Below the pieces are notes generated by a model that saw only the letters and a list, made by a program, of their open reading frames with translations, ran no database searches and was not told where the DNA came from. From Escherichia phage vB_Eco_mar001J1, in sequence record NC_048204.1: DNA of 50,343 nucleotides; one strand, written 5' to 3'. The translations under genes were made by a program, and so were the position numbers. Below, piece after piece: positions 3,627 to 47,032 of this stretch (its first letter is position 1; each line of letters opens with the position of its first letter).

Positions 3627-3670
3627 ATTATGCCCGACACTAGGCCGGGCGTTTTAACAAAAAGTGCTAT
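3627..3670 (-). promoter_or_regulatory. Cassette promoter candidate: 20-mer ATAGCACTTTTTGTTAAAAC + 18 bp (GC hairpin) + CATAAT
   Basis: Motif overlaps stop of 3670..3927; 22 bp from TTGTTA to the hexamer; almost identical to inverted copy at 50143-50186. Confidence 0.55.
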
Positions 3671-25470: not shown

Positions 25471-25490
25471 ATAGCACTTTTTGTTAAAAG
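25471..25490 (+). repeat. Inverted cassette 20-mer immediately 5' of the chaperone G RBS
   Basis: ATAGCACTTTTTGTTAAAAG reads on plus strand while flanking genes are on minus; TAGATT lies 22 bp downstream on plus. Confidence 0.5.
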
Positions 25491-28160: not shown

Positions 28161-28195
28161 ATAAATAAAAAAAAGGGGAACCCTTAAGGCTCCCC
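28161..28195 (-). terminator. Strong terminator directly after the major capsid gene
   Basis: GGGGAGCC ttaa GGGTTCCCC followed by an 8-nt T-run. Confidence 0.65.
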
Positions 28196-28206: not shown

Positions 28207-29178
28207 TTACTCAGCTTTTTTCAAGCCGGTAATGAGCACCATCGTAAACGGACGATAAATCGTAAGGCCAGTACACTTGGAAGTGCAAGGAACCTTGAAA
28301 TGTAGGTCTTTTGGCTGCGCCGGAAGCATGTTAAACGCTTCTGGAATCTCAATGCTCATGTTCATTGGATCTTTTTCGTAAACCAAGCAACCTTTCGTAC
28401 CTTTGCCGTCAATATCCTCAAGCTCTGCGATAGAGTCGATAGTGATACCGCCGTTTTGCTTCTGGAAGTATTCCAGATAACTTTCAGTGGTATTTTCCAT
28501 TCGAACCGTCAGGACTTTGCGCATGGACGGCGGGATCAGGATGTTAGTCGCGCGGTGCTGGCCTTTGGTCACTTCCTCGATCGTTTCGATTGCAGCCTCC
28601 AGTTCATCGCTTGCTACCTGCGGGAATTTGGTATTGCCGTCATTGCTCATCCAGCCTTTAGAAACAATTTTCGTAAGGTTAGGATGATCGAAAACGGAAA
28701 CGATCTTGTGAGGCTTGGAACCCTTGAACACCAGGAAGTTAATCAACTGATCATGTGCATTTTGCGCAGCGTTAGCCTTGCGAGTTGACAGGCTCTTGCC
28801 AGTTCGCTGACCTGTTTTAATCTCATCAATGGAGATCAGATAAGCGTTACCCAGGCGGAACACTTTGCCAAACTCAGAAGTCATCAACGCGTCCACAGTC
28901 GGCAGATCATCGGTGTAGTCGGCGATAATTTTCGCATAGCCAACCTTATCAAAAGTCTGATATTCGAAAGTCTTGTCAGTATCAGAAAGCTCGTTTGTTA
29001 CAGGGAATACACGAAGCGCGGAACCTGCCGGATACTCTTTCTCGTATGCGTTAGAGCGGATCTTGTGTAGCTCTTGAGCGGTCCAAATACCCATATCAGA
29101 AGCGTCGGACTTAACACCCTGAATCTGCAAATGATTTGCTACAATAGTAGCATCTAATTCATCATATTTTTTAGCCAT
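28207..29178 (-). CDS. Major capsid protein
   Basis: 323 aa in the expected position; strong GGAGG RBS; own promoter and downstream terminator. Confidence 0.7.
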   Translation of the reverse strand: MAKKYDELDATIVANHLQIQGVKSDASDMGIWTAQELHKIRSNAYEKEYPAGSALRVFPVTNELSDTDKTFEYQTFDKVGYAKIIADYTDDLPTVDALMTSEFGKVFRLGNAYLISIDEIKTGQRTGKSLSTRKANAAQNAHDQLINFLVFKGSKPHKIVSVFDHPNLTKIVSKGWMSNDGNTKFPQVASDELEAAIETIEEVTKGQHRATNILIPPSMRKVLTVRMENTTESYLEYFQKQNGGITIDSIAELEDIDGKGTKGCLVYEKDPMNMSIEIPEAFNMLPAQPKDLHFKVPCTSKCTGLTIYRPFTMVLITGLKKAE

Positions 29179-29219
29179 TTTGTTTCCTCCATAAAAGGCC
29201 GTTACATTTAACGGCCTAG

Positions 29220-29247
29220 ATGATAGCACTTTTTGTTAAAGCGTCAA
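29220..29247 (-). promoter_or_regulatory. Sigma70-type promoter for capsid gene (TTGACG, 16-bp spacer, extended -10 TGcTATCAT)
   Basis: The spacer and extended -10 are the inverted cassette 20-mer (plus 29223-29241); 5'-UTR hairpin GGCCGTTAAATGTAACGGCC follows. Confidence 0.55.
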
Positions 29248-29259
29248 AGCGTTTTTATG

Positions 29260-30273
29260 TTATTCAGGATCGGTGATGGTTAGTCTTTGCTGACCTTTAA
29301 CGCCAGAACCATCAGCAGCGGTCCAGATAACATCAACCTCGCCAGCGGCGATAGTAGTTACTAGTCCAGTACCAGGATCTACAGATGCAAAATCACCACT
29401 TGACAAAGACCAAGAACCGGATTTATTTGTAGCACCTTCTGGAGCAACGACAACGCTCGCCTGAACGGCTTCACCAACAAGTGCAGAATTTTTCTCAAGG
29501 CTTACGGTTGCACTAGCGACGCTAACAACAGCTTTTTCGAATTGATAAACAATCGTGGCCTTAGTCTTGCTTCCATCGTTAGCAGTCCAATTTACGTTTA
29601 CACTACCGAATGCATCACTACCAACAGGAGTTAGAATACCTGTATCGGCATCAATAGTCGCAATGTTTACAGCATCAACAGACCAAACACCAGTTTTATC
29701 GGTGGCGTTGCCAGGCTCTACTGTGATACTGCATTTTACAGGAGCATTGTTTGGCTGCGGACTCTCCTTGTCAGTGTTAATTGTTGCAGACTCTACCAGC
29801 ACCACAGGAGGCGGAGGGGGTGGAACGATGAGAGCATTTTGCTTCACCTGAACCTCAATAATGTGACCGTCTTCGTGCTTAACAAAGCCACCAGCAAAGG
29901 TCCAGCCAACATAATCATCTACGCCAGTTACTACTCCTCCAACACCGATTTTTAGTTTTGAGAATGATTTCGGGGCTTCACTAAGAGAAGTAAGCGCCCA
30001 CACCCGACCGTGAGAAACGACGTTACACACCTCTCCGTCGAGAATTTTACCGCTCAGGTGCTCATATTGGGAACGAAAAGCGATGCCGTAAGGAGTTTCA
30101 CCATCAGAAATCGCCGTCACAACCCTCATTCCATCCACTATTCCGACAACCCGAACCGCTGATCCAAACTCAATATCACCTTGAGCAACACAAGCGCCAT
30201 CAATGTTATAGGTTGAAGTATCAGAGAGATTGCCAGGACATGCATAGTGCAGCATTAAATTTTCATAAGCCAT
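29260..30273 (-). CDS. Head decoration protein paralogue with C-terminal Ig-like extension
   Basis: N-terminal region paralogous to 30334..30813 (TYNIDGACV, PYGIAFRS, HGRVWALTS, AGGFVKH), then PPPPPP linker and beta-rich repeats. Confidence 0.55.
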   Translation of the reverse strand: MAYENLMLHYACPGNLSDTSTYNIDGACVAQGDIEFGSAVRVVGIVDGMRVVTAISDGETPYGIAFRSQYEHLSGKILDGEVCNVVSHGRVWALTSLSEAPKSFSKLKIGVGGVVTGVDDYVGWTFAGGFVKHEDGHIIEVQVKQNALIVPPPPPPVVLVESATINTDKESPQPNNAPVKCSITVEPGNATDKTGVWSVDAVNIATIDADTGILTPVGSDAFGSVNVNWTANDGSKTKATIVYQFEKAVVSVASATVSLEKNSALVGEAVQASVVVAPEGATNKSGSWSLSSGDFASVDPGTGLVTTIAAGEVDVIWTAADGSGVKGQQRLTITDPE

Positions 30274-30282
30274 AATAATTTC

Positions 30283-30318
30283 TCCATAAAAAAAAGGACC
30301 ATCCAAAAGGATGGCCCC
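30283..30318 (-). terminator. Terminator/attenuator between the two decoration paralogues
   Basis: GGCCATCC tttt GGATGGTCC followed by a 9-nt T-run. Confidence 0.65.
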
Positions 30319-30333
30319 AATATTAAACTCTAA

Positions 30334-30813
30334 TTACAGTTGCTGCAACTGAACTTCTACAAGCTTAATATCTTTATATTTGACAAAGCCGCCAGCGTAG
30401 GTCCAGTTAGTAGTGATTGCGCCGTCTGATTTTTCATGACCATCAACATCAAGCTTGACAGCAGTGCCGAAGACTGGTGCTGCGCTGGACTTTGAAAGAA
30501 TCCAAACTCTGCCAGATGTCATTACGTTGATTGCGCTTCCTTCTTCATAAACCATCTGTCCTTGAGAGTTAACAGTTTGCCAGTGAGAACGAATTGCCAC
30601 ACCGTAAGGATATTTTCCTGTTTCCATGCGCTTAATAAGTTTATGACCTTCAACCGCTTGCACTGCGACAACCTGCACGGCAGTACCAACAAGAATTTCT
30701 CCACCTTCACTAACGACGCAAGCGCCGTCAATGTTGTATTTAGAAGTGTCAGCAACCATGCCAGGTAGTGCGATCGCCATAGTGTCAAAATAACTTGCTC
30801 CAATTTTAGCCAT
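30334..30813 (-). CDS. Head decoration protein (lambda gpD-like)
   Basis: 159 aa; DTSKYNIDGACVV resembles gpD; AAGGAG RBS. Confidence 0.5.
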   Translation of the reverse strand: MAKIGASYFDTMAIALPGMVADTSKYNIDGACVVSEGGEILVGTAVQVVAVQAVEGHKLIKRMETGKYPYGVAIRSHWQTVNSQGQMVYEEGSAINVMTSGRVWILSKSSAAPVFGTAVKLDVDGHEKSDGAITTNWTYAGGFVKYKDIKLVEVQLQQL

Positions 30814-30825
30814 TTTAATTACTCC

Positions 30826-31941
30826 TTATTTCAGTTTCTCAAAACGAGCGTTAGGATTCAGCTTAGAACCTGCGTCATCCTGTTTTTCATTAGCGAAAGA
30901 GTCACCTTTAATGCTCTTACGCTGCGCCGCCATTTTATCAGAGTTTTTGGCGATGTCGAAAGCTGTTTCGATATAGGCATCAGTTTTATCGGAAACGTCA
31001 TTGCCCATAACTTCTTTGATGTATGCAACCTTGATTGCTTTAGCATCCAGGCCGTCGCACTTGATGCCTAACTCTTTAGCGTCTGCCACTAATTGAGCAT
31101 ATTGCTCGGCATCTTCTTTGGCCTTCTTGACTGCGGCATCAATCTGATCCTGAATGCCATCTACTTTGGATTGCAGCGCATCGCGCTCAGCTTCCAAGCC
31201 GTCCGCCTTTTCTTTCTGTGCTTTGGCATCAGCTTTCAGTGATTCAATGTGATCCGCAACTGCTTTCGGAACATCAAATTCTACAGCGCCATCCAGTTTA
31301 ATTTTTACAGTCATGATTTGATCCTCTTTGTTGTTAATAACTTCGTCACTATACGGAAAATCTTGCTGACTATCAAGGTTTAATTTTGCGATACCAGCAC
31401 GGCCTCTGAAAACTAACGCGATGTGGTTTACCTTGATTTCAGTCTGGATTGCATCAAACTTAACCCAATCAGGAGAATCAGGTTTCCAGTCTTCGCTAAC
31501 ATCCTCATCGAAAACGTACTCACCAGTTTTATTATTGCCCCAGCCTGGTTTATCAATATCAACCGATGTATAACCAACTGAAATTTCCGCCGTGTCTCGC
31601 TTCTTCGCGCTTTCGATTGCTCGTTTTGAGTAAATGCTTAACGGAACCTCTACGCCGATCCCGTTCGGCACGCCAGCGCCAGCACAAGAACCAACCACAA
31701 CCTTTTCGGCGTTTTCTGGCGTTACCGTGACGTGACCAACCGTGACTGGCTTACCTGCGAAGGTGGCGAGCGAGTCGGCCTTGAATACTTCGGACGCCGG
31801 ACGAAATTCTCTGCGCTCACCGAAAGGAGTCTGATAGACTTGTAAACCAATTCGCGCCACGATAGGGCGATCAACTAAAAACCCGTTATCATCAAAGTGC
31901 GCCTTTACTTTGGCGCTATCAAATCTTTGTTTTGCCTTCAT
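30826..31941 (-). CDS. Putative scaffolding protein / prohead protease
   Basis: Position between head morphogenesis and decoration genes; C-terminal coiled-coil (KADAKAQKEKADGLEAERDALQSK). Confidence 0.4.
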   Translation of the reverse strand: MKAKQRFDSAKVKAHFDDNGFLVDRPIVARIGLQVYQTPFGERREFRPASEVFKADSLATFAGKPVTVGHVTVTPENAEKVVVGSCAGAGVPNGIGVEVPLSIYSKRAIESAKKRDTAEISVGYTSVDIDKPGWGNNKTGEYVFDEDVSEDWKPDSPDWVKFDAIQTEIKVNHIALVFRGRAGIAKLNLDSQQDFPYSDEVINNKEDQIMTVKIKLDGAVEFDVPKAVADHIESLKADAKAQKEKADGLEAERDALQSKVDGIQDQIDAAVKKAKEDAEQYAQLVADAKELGIKCDGLDAKAIKVAYIKEVMGNDVSDKTDAYIETAFDIAKNSDKMAAQRKSIKGDSFANEKQDDAGSKLNPNARFEKLK

Positions 31942-34007: not shown

Positions 34008-34037
34008 CATAATAAAAAGGCTGGAAAAATCCAGCCT
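34008..34037 (-). terminator. Stem-loop between large terminase and portal genes
   Basis: AAGGCTGGA...TCCAGCCTT followed by TTTTATT. Confidence 0.55.
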
Positions 34038-34047
34038 TGATTATATA

Positions 34048-34069
34048 ACTTTTTAGCAATTAGTGCTAT
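34048..34069 (-). repeat. Degenerate cassette copy (TAAATAGCACTAATTGCTAAAAAG) with adjacent TATAAT
   Basis: Overlaps the large terminase stop codon; spacing unlike the canonical cassette. Confidence 0.35.
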
Positions 34070-35637
34070 TTATTGCGTAGACCAGCCAGCTTTTTCATCC
34101 TTGCCACCGGATCATCTGCCAAGTTCATTTCGACGTTAACAGCATCAACTATATTATCGACAATATCATCATGGGGATGAGAATCATCAAAAGTGAATGC
34201 TGCAACCTCTGCCAGTATCTCAGGCAGCATGGGGTGATTTTCTGGCAGCGCCACACGTCCGGCCCTCATTACTGGCGCGGCGTCCATTGCTCGCGTCACC
34301 TTGTCATTGCTTCGCTGAACGGGATTTATATCAATCGGGATCTTCTTTTTGGCCCCCTGAATCAAACCCGTGCCGCTGGCCTTATCCTCAATATGGATAC
34401 GTCGCAAGCTGCCACACTCCTTATTGCGCTTCCAGCACTGGTTAACGAAGGCAATAAAATTTAATTCAAGATCCGGCGCTTCCCACTTTCCGCGAATGCC
34501 ATCAATGAAGTAAACGCGATTCTTATACATACCCCAATAACAAAAAACTGAATAGTCATTAAGCTCTCCGGCCTTCTGCGCGGTATCTCCAGTGATAAAT
34601 GTGTATTCAAAGCGATCCGGTTTAGGAAGTGCGCATTTTTCGCCGCTGCCGTAATACTGGAACCACTCTGTTTTAAACACATTCCCGCCCAGCGCGATTG
34701 GTTGCTGTTGGTATTGGCTGGCGAACGTGTAAGGATCTGCATTGCGCAATGCAAGCAATTCCTCCGCGCTTTCCTTTGCAGGCCAAAATGAATAATGAGC
34801 AACGCCATCTATCATCACTGGCTTACTGGACAAAACATCGCGATCAAACTCTGGCTTTAACCAATCAGGAAGCGTTTCCCGATAATCCTCGGTAACGAGC
34901 GCCGGAATGCTCACGACCTTAAATTTGATGCCGCCCATACCGCCATTCGTCATAAACCAAGTCGAATCATTGACGTGTAGCCGCTGCTGAACCATTACAA
35001 TGGGCGTGGTGTCTTTCATTCGACGAGATCGCACGGTGTTTTTTAGGCGCATGTGTCCGGCTTCGCGCTTCGTCTTTGATAGCTGATCGTCTGGTTTGTC
35101 TGGATCGTCGAGAACCAGCATACCAGTGAAGCCATCATCCATGTAACCACCACGTAATCCCGTTACCTGTCCGCCAATGGATCGTGAATTGAGTTGCAGC
35201 CAGACTTTACCATCACGATTAAGCACAGCTATATCTTTTGCGCTGGCCTTTGCCATCTTGCAAGGCCATAGCTCTTGCCATTCCGGCGAACCGATAATCT
35301 CCCTTACTCGAATGCTGTTTTGCTGCACAAGTCCATCACTAAACGAAAGGTTTAAATTTCGCACCTTCTTGCTTTTCAGCATTGCGTAAACTGGCATGTG
35401 GATCGAGAATATTTCCGTTTTTGACGAACCAGGAGCAACGTTGAAAATCACGTTCTGCTCCTTGCCACTAATCACATCCTCAAGGCATCGGCAGATATAT
35501 GATAAATGCCAGTTACCTAAAAACTTTTGCCCCTGTAGCAAGCTAAACCAAATGCGGATCATCTTTTCGAATGAGTGGGCGCTCATTTCTTTAATGGCGC
35601 GTTTCTGCGCCGCTGTTAAGTCCTCCCAAATAATCAT
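34066..35637 (-). CDS. Terminase large subunit
   Basis: 523 aa with ATPase-like N-terminal region; position between small terminase and portal. Confidence 0.75.
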   Translation of the reverse strand: MIIWEDLTAAQKRAIKEMSAHSFEKMIRIWFSLLQGQKFLGNWHLSYICRCLEDVISGKEQNVIFNVAPGSSKTEIFSIHMPVYAMLKSKKVRNLNLSFSDGLVQQNSIRVREIIGSPEWQELWPCKMAKASAKDIAVLNRDGKVWLQLNSRSIGGQVTGLRGGYMDDGFTGMLVLDDPDKPDDQLSKTKREAGHMRLKNTVRSRRMKDTTPIVMVQQRLHVNDSTWFMTNGGMGGIKFKVVSIPALVTEDYRETLPDWLKPEFDRDVLSSKPVMIDGVAHYSFWPAKESAEELLALRNADPYTFASQYQQQPIALGGNVFKTEWFQYYGSGEKCALPKPDRFEYTFITGDTAQKAGELNDYSVFCYWGMYKNRVYFIDGIRGKWEAPDLELNFIAFVNQCWKRNKECGSLRRIHIEDKASGTGLIQGAKKKIPIDINPVQRSNDKVTRAMDAAPVMRAGRVALPENHPMLPEILAEVAAFTFDDSHPHDDIVDNIVDAVNVEMNLADDPVARMKKLAGLRNK

Positions 35638-38836: not shown

Positions 38837-38880
38837 ACTTTATCAAATGCCCTTGCGGAAGTTTTAACAAAAAGTGCTAT
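38837..38880 (-). promoter_or_regulatory. Cassette promoter candidate (20-mer, hairpin, TAAAGT)
   Basis: Overlaps stop of 38880..39170; 22-bp spacing. Confidence 0.5.
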
Positions 38881-46281: not shown

Positions 46282-46992
46282 ATGTATAAAGGTTTAATAT
46301 TCTCACTATTTGATGGATCTGGTAAGGCCGTTAAAGACTGGGCTGATAATGGCTATAAGTGCATTTGCTTTAATGCTGACGGTGGCGATCACGGTGATTA
46401 CCAGTCAGTGCGCATACAGCATGAGAATATCGAATACGTTAACGTCTGGATTGATGATGCTTTTTATGTTAAGGCAATCAATAATGAGTGGGGCAATCCT
46501 GATTTTATTATGGCCTTCCCACCATGCACCGACCTTGCAAATAGCGGATCTCGCCATTGGGCCAAAAAACGCCTTGAGAATCCATCGTTCCAGGATGAGG
46601 CCGCCGACACTTGCAGAATAGCGGCTGATATAGGTGATTATTTCGGTGTTCCTTACATGATCGAAAATCCGGTTGGCAAGTTGTCAACGTTATGGCGTAA
46701 GCCTAATTATACGTTCCATCCGTGCGATTACGCTGGCTATCTGCCGGAAGATGATAAACACCCCGACTTCCCTGATATTATTCCGGCGCGGGATCGCTAC
46801 TTTAAGAAAACGTGTCTCTGGACTGGCAACGGCTTTGTTATTCCTCCACGCGCTTTAATCCTGCCGAAAGAGGAAGACAAAGATAATCCAGGCTGGGCCA
46901 AAACTGGCGGCAAGTCATCGCGCACAAAGATGATCCGCTCCCTCACTCCGCGCGGCTTTGCTCGCGCCGTCTTTGAGTCAAACTCAAAATAG
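46282..46992 (+). CDS. DNA cytosine-C5 methyltransferase-like protein, unusually short with PCT in place of PCQ
   Basis: Motif I LFDGSG, motif IV AFPPCTDLA, motif VI ENPVGK; only 236 aa, no obvious target-recognition domain. Confidence 0.55.
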   Translation: MYKGLIFSLFDGSGKAVKDWADNGYKCICFNADGGDHGDYQSVRIQHENIEYVNVWIDDAFYVKAINNEWGNPDFIMAFPPCTDLANSGSRHWAKKRLENPSFQDEAADTCRIAADIGDYFGVPYMIENPVGKLSTLWRKPNYTFHPCDYAGYLPEDDKHPDFPDIIPARDRYFKKTCLWTGNGFVIPPRALILPKEEDKDNPGWAKTGGKSSRTKMIRSLTPRGFARAVFESNSK

Positions 46993-47032
46993 CACTTTTT
47001 GTTAAAAGCCAGGTGTAAAAACCTGGCATAAT
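46989..47032 (+). promoter_or_regulatory. Cassette promoter candidate (20-mer, hairpin CCAGGTGTAAAAACCTGG, CATAAT, CCGAAACGAAAGGAG leader)
   Basis: 22-bp spacing; overlaps TAG stop of the methyltransferase-like gene. Confidence 0.55.

Follow-up and report, generated by a model that had tools for sequence, protein, structure and literature searches.

The stretch of DNA analysed here, referred to as the window, comprises the 50,343 nucleotides of sequence record NC_048204.1 from Escherichia phage vB_Eco_mar001J1, which belongs to Warwickvirus (Drexlerviridae, Tempevirinae). A 3.75-kb region surrounding A and B has 100% identity to LR027388 / NC_048206, of which the window is a rotated copy. On its minus strand the head genes are arranged in the order portal, Mu-F-like head morphogenesis protein, DUF2213 protease/scaffold, gene A, gene B and major capsid protein. 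The features from the protease/scaffold gene to the capsid gene are as follows.

30826..31941, minus strand: gene for the DUF2213 head maturation protease/scaffold (Pfam DUF2213; phrog_530); its stop lies 12 nt before A
30334..30813, minus strand: gene A (gp12 in records LR027388 / NC_048206), 159 aa, predicted main trimeric capsid cement/decoration protein, T1 gp49 orthologue
30288..30318, minus strand: terminator-like element (consensus scan, RNA fold), with a stem-loop at 30318..30296 (10+4+9 nt) and a run of eight T's at 30295..30288
30271..30285, minus strand: ribosome-binding site of B, GGAG at 30285..30282, and ATG at 30273..30271 (read off the sequence)
29260..30273, minus strand: gene B (gp11 in the record), 337 aa
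29836..30273, minus strand: B residues 1-146, predicted cement domain that binds the capsid, a paralogue of A and an orthologue of the N-terminal domain of T1 gp48 (Phage_cement 58.5 bits; Foldseek)
29794..29835, minus strand: B residues 147-160, proline-rich linker (sequence; pLDDT <50 at residues 150-153)
29533..29793, minus strand: B residues 161-247, Ig-like domain 1 (Big_2), orthologue of the single T1 gp48 Ig domain (25.0 bits against 22.8)
29260..29532, minus strand: B residues 248-337 and the stop codon, Ig-like domain 2 (Big_2), absent from T1 gp48 (45.5 bits)
29220..29247, minus strand: promoter-like site TTGACG, 16-nt spacer, TATCAT with a TG-extended -10, ahead of the major capsid gene (scan, 10/12 consensus matches)
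29196..29217, minus strand: second hairpin, AGGCCGTTA-AATG-TAACGGCCT, followed by TTTTAT, a ribosome-binding site and the capsid ATG at 29178 (RNA fold)
28207..29178, minus strand: major capsid protein gene (Pfam Major_capside 179.8 bits; phrog_264)

A preliminary description of this DNA had placed two related open reading frames at 30334-30813 and 29260-30273, and both are present there on the minus strand. The program-made frame of B reaches a TTG at 30306, inside the hairpin. The start of B is the ATG at 30273, which has GGAG 8 nt upstream and agrees with the T1 gp48 start, MAYENL. The position of the cement genes between the prohead protease/scaffold and major capsid genes is common to 12 annotated relatives, and the order from A to the capsid gene is also kept in the surveyed IMG/VR loci. 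In the public records of mar001J1 and most of its relatives, A and B are listed as 'hypothetical protein'.

The proposal that A and B are tandem paralogous head decoration genes was borne out. Both proteins match Pfam Phage_cement (PF22758; E217 gp24 / Pam3 gp6), A with 98.8 bits and B with 58.5 bits at a cut-off of 27, and both match the Pfam profile XM1_gp53_minor_capsid. They are close homologues of the cement proteins of T1 and FCWL1 seen by cryo-EM. Comparison with solved structures paired A with the 158-aa 'decoration protein / cement protein II' of FCWL1 and T1 (E-value 2.4e-77) and residues 1-247 of B with the 255-aa T1 'BIG2 domain-containing protein' (9KZJ chain H; E-value 5e-130); in Foldseek the N-terminal domain of B gave a TM score of 0.90 and 87% identity to 9kzj_H. 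A and B are the orthologues of T1 gp49 and gp48, respectively. A and the first 145 residues of B are 40% identical over 144 aa (E 8e-30), and the four motifs that had been read as their common signature, YNIDGACV, PYG(V/I)A(I/F)RS, GRVW and AGGFVK, all occur in both proteins. A tblastn search of the whole window found neither a third copy of the cement domain nor a further Ig domain. The labels 'zonula occludens toxin', 'HtjA' and 'SbcC-like scaffolding protein' carried by related records were rejected on the basis of the T1 and FCWL1 structures.

The shared domain had also been called gpD-like, and this name is probably appropriate only in part. The cement fold of solved capsid structures is present in the A/B domain, and the structure comparison gave the following figures.

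FCWL1 chains: 21.6 and 19.3
XM1 gp53: 15.4
Pam3 cement protein: 13.9
HFTV1 stabilization protein: 12.1
E217 gp24: 12.0
TW1 stabilizing protein: 11.1
Lambda gpD: 4.8

Because the figure for gpD is 4.8 against 11.1-21.6 for the other proteins, 'gpD-like' is probably a statement only of distant likeness at the level of the fold. Neither A nor B matched the lambda gpD profile (Pfam PF02924) at E <= 0.1, and the family to which they belong is the XM1 / Pam3 / E217 / TW1 / T1 cement family. In a neighbour-joining tree of cement domains, T1-type B proteins shared 38-42% with A proteins and 28-33% with other B types. That T1-type B is as near to A as to other B could reflect two duplications, gene conversion or fast evolution.

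Orthologues of both paralogues have been detected in virions, and an Ig fold is predicted for B, contrary to the outcome (one paralogue only, no Ig-like fold) that the preliminary description had named as its refutation. ESI-MS/MS of CsCl-purified virions of vB_Eco_swan01 detected only five proteins, with SWAN_00026 as well as SWAN_00027 among them (PMC6563131). SWAN_00026 is 96% identical to B and SWAN_00027 is 96% identical to A; this mass spectrometry was qualitative and was done on swan01, not on mar001J1, and the remark 'confirmed structural protein by MS' that GenBank gives for gp11 and gp12 was transferred by orthology. The arrangement of the pair on the head is known from cryo-EM of T1 (PDB 9KZJ), in which 80 gp49 homotrimers and 60 gp48·gp49₂ heterotrimers cover the T=7 head, corresponding to about 360 copies of gp49, 60 of gp48 and 415 of the capsid protein per head (PMC11945409). 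Of the two T1 proteins, gp49 (158 aa) was modelled into the map, and gp48 (255 aa) was modelled over its N-terminal 153 residues; the gp49 N-terminus reaches the inner surface, and gp48 lies on the outside only (PMC11945409).

By homology with T1 gp49 and gp48, A of mar001J1 would form homotrimers and also A2B heterotrimers with one copy of B, and these trimers would clamp the threefold and quasi-threefold junctions of a T=7 HK97-fold capsid. B would be anchored by its N-terminal cement domain, and the proline linker would hold two Big_2 domains off the shell, one more than in T1. The trimer composition and copy number proposed here for mar001J1 follow by analogy, the numbers being transferred from T1, whose gp48 is 76% identical to B over the shared 246 aa and is without the second Ig domain.

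The preliminary description had given B a poly-proline linker followed by about 200 aa of beta-rich, Ig-like repeats. The linker and the Ig-like character stand, and the length is about 177 aa. The linker contains IVPPPPPPVV, with six prolines at residues 150-155, and the PPPPPP stretch is kept in T1-type homologues. Big_2 (Pfam PF02368) was found twice: whole B matches it over two stretches with an E-value of 4.1e-14, and each domain taken alone exceeds the gathering score of 22.8 bits (25.0 for Ig1, residues 161-247, and 45.5 for Ig2, residues 248-337). An AlphaFold2 model of B, built from 42 homologues, has a mean pLDDT of 87 and a pTM of 0.44. In the model a beta domain at the N-terminus is joined by a low-confidence linker to two seven-strand beta-sandwiches of the Ig fold, with a pLDDT of about 90 over residues 161-337. 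Foldseek matched the C-terminal part to LigA Big_2, Big_2-CBM56, the T5 pb6 Ig domain and cadherin repeats, and the N4 capsid decoration chain 9e99_K was also among the matches to the Ig part.

The two Ig domains are 42% identical to each other (E 1e-15). The Ig domains of JMPW2 and ISF001 share 62-66% identity with Ig1. Ig2 is present only in the homologues of 336-346 aa, and outside these two-Ig proteins its nearest relatives are only about 42-45% identical. The lack of a near relative beyond the two-Ig proteins fits an old internal duplication.

As for the function of the extension, the preliminary description had pointed to adhesion to mucus or cell surfaces. An adhesion role is what we infer for B: its Ig domains would form about 60 flexible tethers per head, most likely making weak contacts with carbohydrates or cell surfaces. 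In T1 the C-terminal domain of gp48 appears as weak, flexible, protruding density that is not packed on the shell, and the authors suggested that it may aid adsorption, citing T5 and crAss001 (PMC11945409). The Ig domains might instead serve the capsid itself, by extra stabilisation on neighbouring capsomers or by assembly fidelity, or might be neutral passengers. Relatives with a bare B of 130-170 aa or without B are viable, which speaks for such a reading: the Ig part is dispensable for heads of this type, and the module is thus accessory. We consider a non-adhesive role improbable, since it agrees poorly with the flexible T1 density, with the disordered proline linker and independent domains of the model (pTM 0.44 despite a pLDDT of 87), and with the variability of the C-terminal module, which is the most variable part among relatives (none, one Ig, two Ig or collagen). 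These same observations point indirectly to an outward-facing, adaptive role.

A terminator-like hairpin had been noticed between A and B, and it is real. It consists of GGGGCCATCC-TTTT-GGATGGTCC, which form a stem of 10 pairs, 6 of them G-C, followed by eight T's. The 71-nt hairpin region folds at -20.1 kcal/mol (z = -2.9), only 2 of 200 shuffles fold as well, and the centroid keeps the 10-pair stem. With its G+C-rich stem and U-tract, its intergenic position and its location on the coding strand, the element has the form of an intrinsic terminator, and the equivalent hairpin after A is annotated as a terminator in phage Sip. A hairpin with a T-run within 90 nt past the A stop was found in 66 of 68 distinct related regions, against 33 of 340 shuffles and 6 of 86 coding controls. 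The stems in these regions comprise at least 15 unrelated sequences, which speaks for selection on structure rather than on sequence. After the eight T's come AT and then the GGAG of B, two bases past the T-run, and in two-gene loci the ribosome-binding site of B likewise lies directly past the U-tract. Sequestration of this site by the hairpin was considered and rejected, because GGAG comes 3' to the U-tract and is left unpaired by the centroid fold.

The promoter-like site ahead of the capsid gene includes one copy of a repeated motif, TTAACAAAAAGTGCTAT, of which the window has 17 occurrences where 0.3 are expected. The second hairpin, whose equivalent is also annotated as a terminator in phage Sip, begins 0-4 nt past the -10 hexamer in 47 of 59 distinct loci. 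When B is present, it always lies between the hairpin of A (55 of 56 two-gene loci) and the capsid promoter-like site (49 of 56), tallies that include Rogue1-type collagen-repeat proteins of 481-491 aa, which are non-paralogues by Pfam. Single-gene relatives have A, hairpin, promoter and capsid gene, with nothing between.

B thus occupies a slot between a terminator-like hairpin and the next strong promoter-like site, which would make it a low-transcription slot. In the simplest reading, the hairpin would end transcription right after A, the strong promoter-like site would restart it only past B, ahead of the capsid gene, and B would receive read-through transcription only. Such a slot would fit the 1:6 ratio of B to A in T1 (60:360:415 for gp48, gp49 and capsid protein). 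The earlier suggestion that A and B differ in expression level gains indirect support from the conservation of the terminator-like element and from the 360:60 copies in T1; the attenuation of B itself is deduced from these. A literature search for transcript maps of Drexlerviridae gave nothing useful.

B may also be independent of read-through, since the hairpin shares its position with a weak promoter-like element that overlaps it. In this arrangement B would be driven by its own weak sigma-70 promoter, in which a -35 TTGCAG (30348..30343) within the final codons of A is separated by 17 nt from a -10 TAATAT (30325..30320) ending 1 nt before the hairpin, and the low amount of B would be due to promoter weakness. 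The start would lie in the 5' arm of the hairpin, so that such transcripts would be without the full terminator. With 7-8 of 12 consensus positions in the window the match is poor, and the standard scan does not report it. Across loci, at least 8 of 12 consensus matches are found in 30 of 52 two-gene loci, while single-gene loci reach this level in 3 of 28 cases and shuffles in 11%; Hanrivervirus-type loci reach only 6 of 12, and the loci are phylogenetically related, so these counts are not independent. Of 29 distinct two-gene loci, 28 have TTG as the Leu codon four codons before the A stop, a codon used for only 10% of the other Leu residues of A, and neighbouring synonymous sites vary; TTG could nevertheless be constrained for another reason. 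In several clades the hairpin is preceded, at a distance of 0-3 nt, by a -10-like hexamer (TAATAT, TAAAAT, TACAAT, TATAAT or TATCCT), and the layout of a -10 followed by a hairpin also occurs ahead of the capsid gene and the portal gene. We regard a promoter of B's own as somewhat unlikely. Both mechanisms predict less B than A, and we rank read-through first and the weak promoter second.

It is also conceivable, and in our judgement unlikely, that the hairpins are mainly elements of mRNA stability or processing, such as 3'-end protection and 5' stem-loops, and that the ratio of A to B is fixed by the capsid sites that accept heterotrimers, with surplus B being discarded. T1 heterotrimers do stand at symmetry-defined positions (PMC11945409), and the 60 heterotrimer sites could be set by capsid geometry whatever the amount of B. 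Terminator-like hairpins separate many late genes of the window, standing ahead of the portal gene and behind each of A, B and the capsid gene, and a published description of T1-like late regions presents them as chains of 'transcriptons' (PMC11447400). The element between A and B, however, has the full form of an intrinsic terminator, with a G+C-rich stem and eight U's; it is kept in 66 of 68 regions despite complete turnover of the stem sequence, and the promoter-like site is kept precisely after B, not before it. Attenuation of B by the terminator-like element remains our preferred reading.

Relatives of A were found by tblastn in 839 phage records, essentially all of Drexlerviridae, and 12 annotated relatives and 80 IMG/VR loci were examined. 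The slot between A and the capsid gene is filled as follows.

Empty: Webervirus, KL3, LF82-40
Bare B of 129-173 aa: Hanrivervirus, Tlsvirus and others
B of 250-273 aa with one Ig domain: T1, K50 and MikeNSara types
B of 336-346 aa with two Ig domains, rare: mar001J1, L014 and clusters P0001-P0004, P0032 and P0033
A 481-aa collagen-repeat protein, a non-paralogue: Rogue1

Our own HMM had drawn the 481-491 aa proteins of the B slot among the paralogues because it was contaminated by the first 175 aa of the Rogue1 protein; this was rejected, as Pfam finds in them collagen repeats without a cement domain.

Comparison with MikeNSara, a phage of the same genus, indicates that the pair has been exchanged as a unit. 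The two genomes share 97.6% identity as far down as 30716, and 97.2% again from 29264 on. The stretch between these points, which covers most of A, the hairpin and all of B, is essentially unalignable, A being 52% and B 30% identical. Identities to phages of other genera run in opposite patterns: A and B are 77% and 76% identical to those of Tunavirus JMPW2 and 56% and 35% to those of Hanrivervirus aalborv, whereas the protease and the capsid protein are 62% and 76% identical to those of JMPW2 and 83% and 86% to those of aalborv. The MikeNSara breakpoints and these opposite patterns argue that A and B travel as one recombination unit. Such joint exchange is expected for partners that must co-assemble.

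Taken together, these observations allow a broader reading, which we put forward tentatively. Throughout Drexlerviridae, an attenuated B slot, running from the terminator to the strong capsid promoter-like site and possibly including a deliberately weak overlapping promoter, may set the ratio of B to A at about 1:6 for 60 A2B and 80 A3 trimers, and most of A, the terminator and B (29265-30715) may swap between subfamilies as a cassette. If this is true, the length and type of the capsid display module (no, one or two Ig domains) could be swapped without touching the rest of the head.

The explanation as a whole, in which A and B are a T1-like cement pair, B carries Ig tethers and less is made of B than of A and of the capsid protein, is in our view probably correct. 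The A-B system is largely explained already by the structures of T1 (2025) and FCWL1 and by mass spectrometry within the genus (2019), and current understanding is not overturned. What is new is modest: a minor cement protein with two Ig domains, the exchange of the A-B cassette, and a conserved arrangement of terminator and promoter by which the unequal stoichiometry is plausibly set. The two genes, listed as 'hypothetical protein' or mislabelled in relatives, can be given a functional name. The T1 design of two cement proteins has a two-Ig version, and its display module is exchangeable. The regulatory layout provides a simple example of how a phage could match expression to unequal capsid stoichiometry. 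In addition, B, at about 60 flexibly tethered copies, may suit phage display.

The nearest known systems are T1 gp49/gp48 (PDB 9KZJ; Chen et al., Viruses 2025, PMC11945409) and the FCWL1 decoration protein/gp29 (PDB 9KMG/9KMH), which have the same two-gene tandem between the protease/scaffold and the capsid gene. The likeness to the T1 type extends to the cement fold, the PPPPPP linker, the first Big_2 domain and the position of the hairpin between the genes. It ends at the C-terminus, where gp48 has 255 aa with one Big_2 domain and B of mar001J1 has 337 aa with two, and at the edges of the cassette: the A-B cassette of mar001J1 is T1-like, whereas its neighbouring head genes are those of another subfamily (Tempevirinae, Warwickvirus) and are nearer to Hanrivervirus than to Tunavirus. 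Other Drexlerviridae have the same A, hairpin and capsid promoter-like site and differ in what accompanies A. In Hanrivervirus and Tlsvirus this is a bare B of 129-170 aa, Rogunavirus Rogue1 has the 481-aa collagen-repeat non-paralogue in the B slot, and in Webervirus Sushi the cement gene is single and includes a collagen-repeat tail.

The same fold (PF22758 / PF23982) is found in trimeric cement proteins that are encoded by a single gene, those of Vibrio phage XM1 (gp53), cyanophage Pam3 (gp6), Pseudomonas phage E217 (gp24) and the marine siphophage TW1 (capsid-stabilizing protein). Lambda gpD (PF02924), which the T1 authors grouped under a beta-tulip-type fold (PMC11945409), resembles A and B as a trimeric decoration protein at threefold sites. 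T4 Hoc, T5 pb10 and the N4 decoration protein resemble B in having flexible, head-exposed Ig-like domains. These proteins bind the centres of hexamers through unrelated anchor domains. Unlike them, the Ig domains of B are carried by one subunit of a cement trimer.

On sequence comparison, the segment at 29265-30715 of the window is a recombination cassette relative to the locus of MikeNSara, a phage of the same genus: the flanks of the two are ~97% identical, and most of the capsid cement protein gene A, the hairpin behind it and all of its paralogue B have been exchanged. The cassette of the window resembles Tunavirus, and the head genes flanking it resemble Hanrivervirus. For the origin of B, B-versus-A similarities and an NJ tree were drawn from the cement domains of 13 phages. 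The T1-type B domains, that of the window included, stood as close to A proteins (38-42%) as they did to the B proteins found in other clades (28-33%). Possible readings are that B originated more than once, that it was homogenised against A, or that it simply evolves faster. Other display modules are found at the same locus:

L008:3062-4507, Rogue1: 481-aa collagen-repeat protein in the slot between A and the capsid gene, not a cement paralogue
L009:2501-3163, Sushi (Webervirus): single cement protein with a collagen triple-helix tail

Such a tail on the Webervirus cement protein would suit a homotrimer.

A and B are both labelled 'hypothetical protein' in the mar001J1 record, a GenBank record of which the window is a circular permutation (in the A-B region, record coordinate + 21241 = window coordinate). 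Public-record labels on their homologues include 'putative zonula occludens toxin', 'HtjA' and 'scaffolding protein SbcC like'. These three labels are very likely wrong because of the T1 and FCWL1 structures.

Promoter-like sites and hairpins lie at several points in the head gene region:

30320-30348 (-): candidate weak promoter, TTGCAG-17-TAATAT, overlapping the terminator-like hairpin between A and B
29196-29247 (-): upstream of the capsid gene, promoter-like site, 3 nt, hairpin, U-run, RBS and ATG, in that order
28175-28195 (-): strong terminator-like hairpin GGGGAGCCTTAAGGGTTCCCC, then T8, directly 3' of the capsid gene
34017-34075 (-): upstream of the portal gene, a similar layout with an inverted copy of the motif TTAACAAAAAGTGCTAT, a perfect TATAAT, hairpin, U-run, RBS and ATG

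The first of these is possibly a weak promoter, judged from its sequence; its TTG is a Leu codon of A and is present in 28/29 two-gene loci, versus 10% TTG usage elsewhere in A. The layout upstream of the capsid gene is kept in 47 of 59 distinct loci, with stems that are many and different. A transcript from the promoter-like site there would begin within the hairpin's 5' arm; the hairpin could then end transcripts coming from upstream and spare those of its own promoter. In the window, the portal gene hairpin is AAGGCTGGA-TTTT-TCCAGCCTT and begins 2 nt past TATAAT.

The 17-nt motif TTAACAAAAAGTGCTAT occurs in 17 copies on both strands of the window (≤3 mismatches), versus 0.3 expected. Examples are:

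3654-3670 (+): motif copy
25471-25487 (-): motif copy
29223-29239 (-): motif copy
38864-38880 (+): motif copy
46989-47005 (-): motif copy

Among the window copies, a good -35 accompanies only the one in front of the capsid gene, and several are immediately followed by an RBS. The motif may be an extended -10 promoter or a regulator binding site, and its counterpart in phage TLS is a reported 21-nt direct repeat (PMC11447400).
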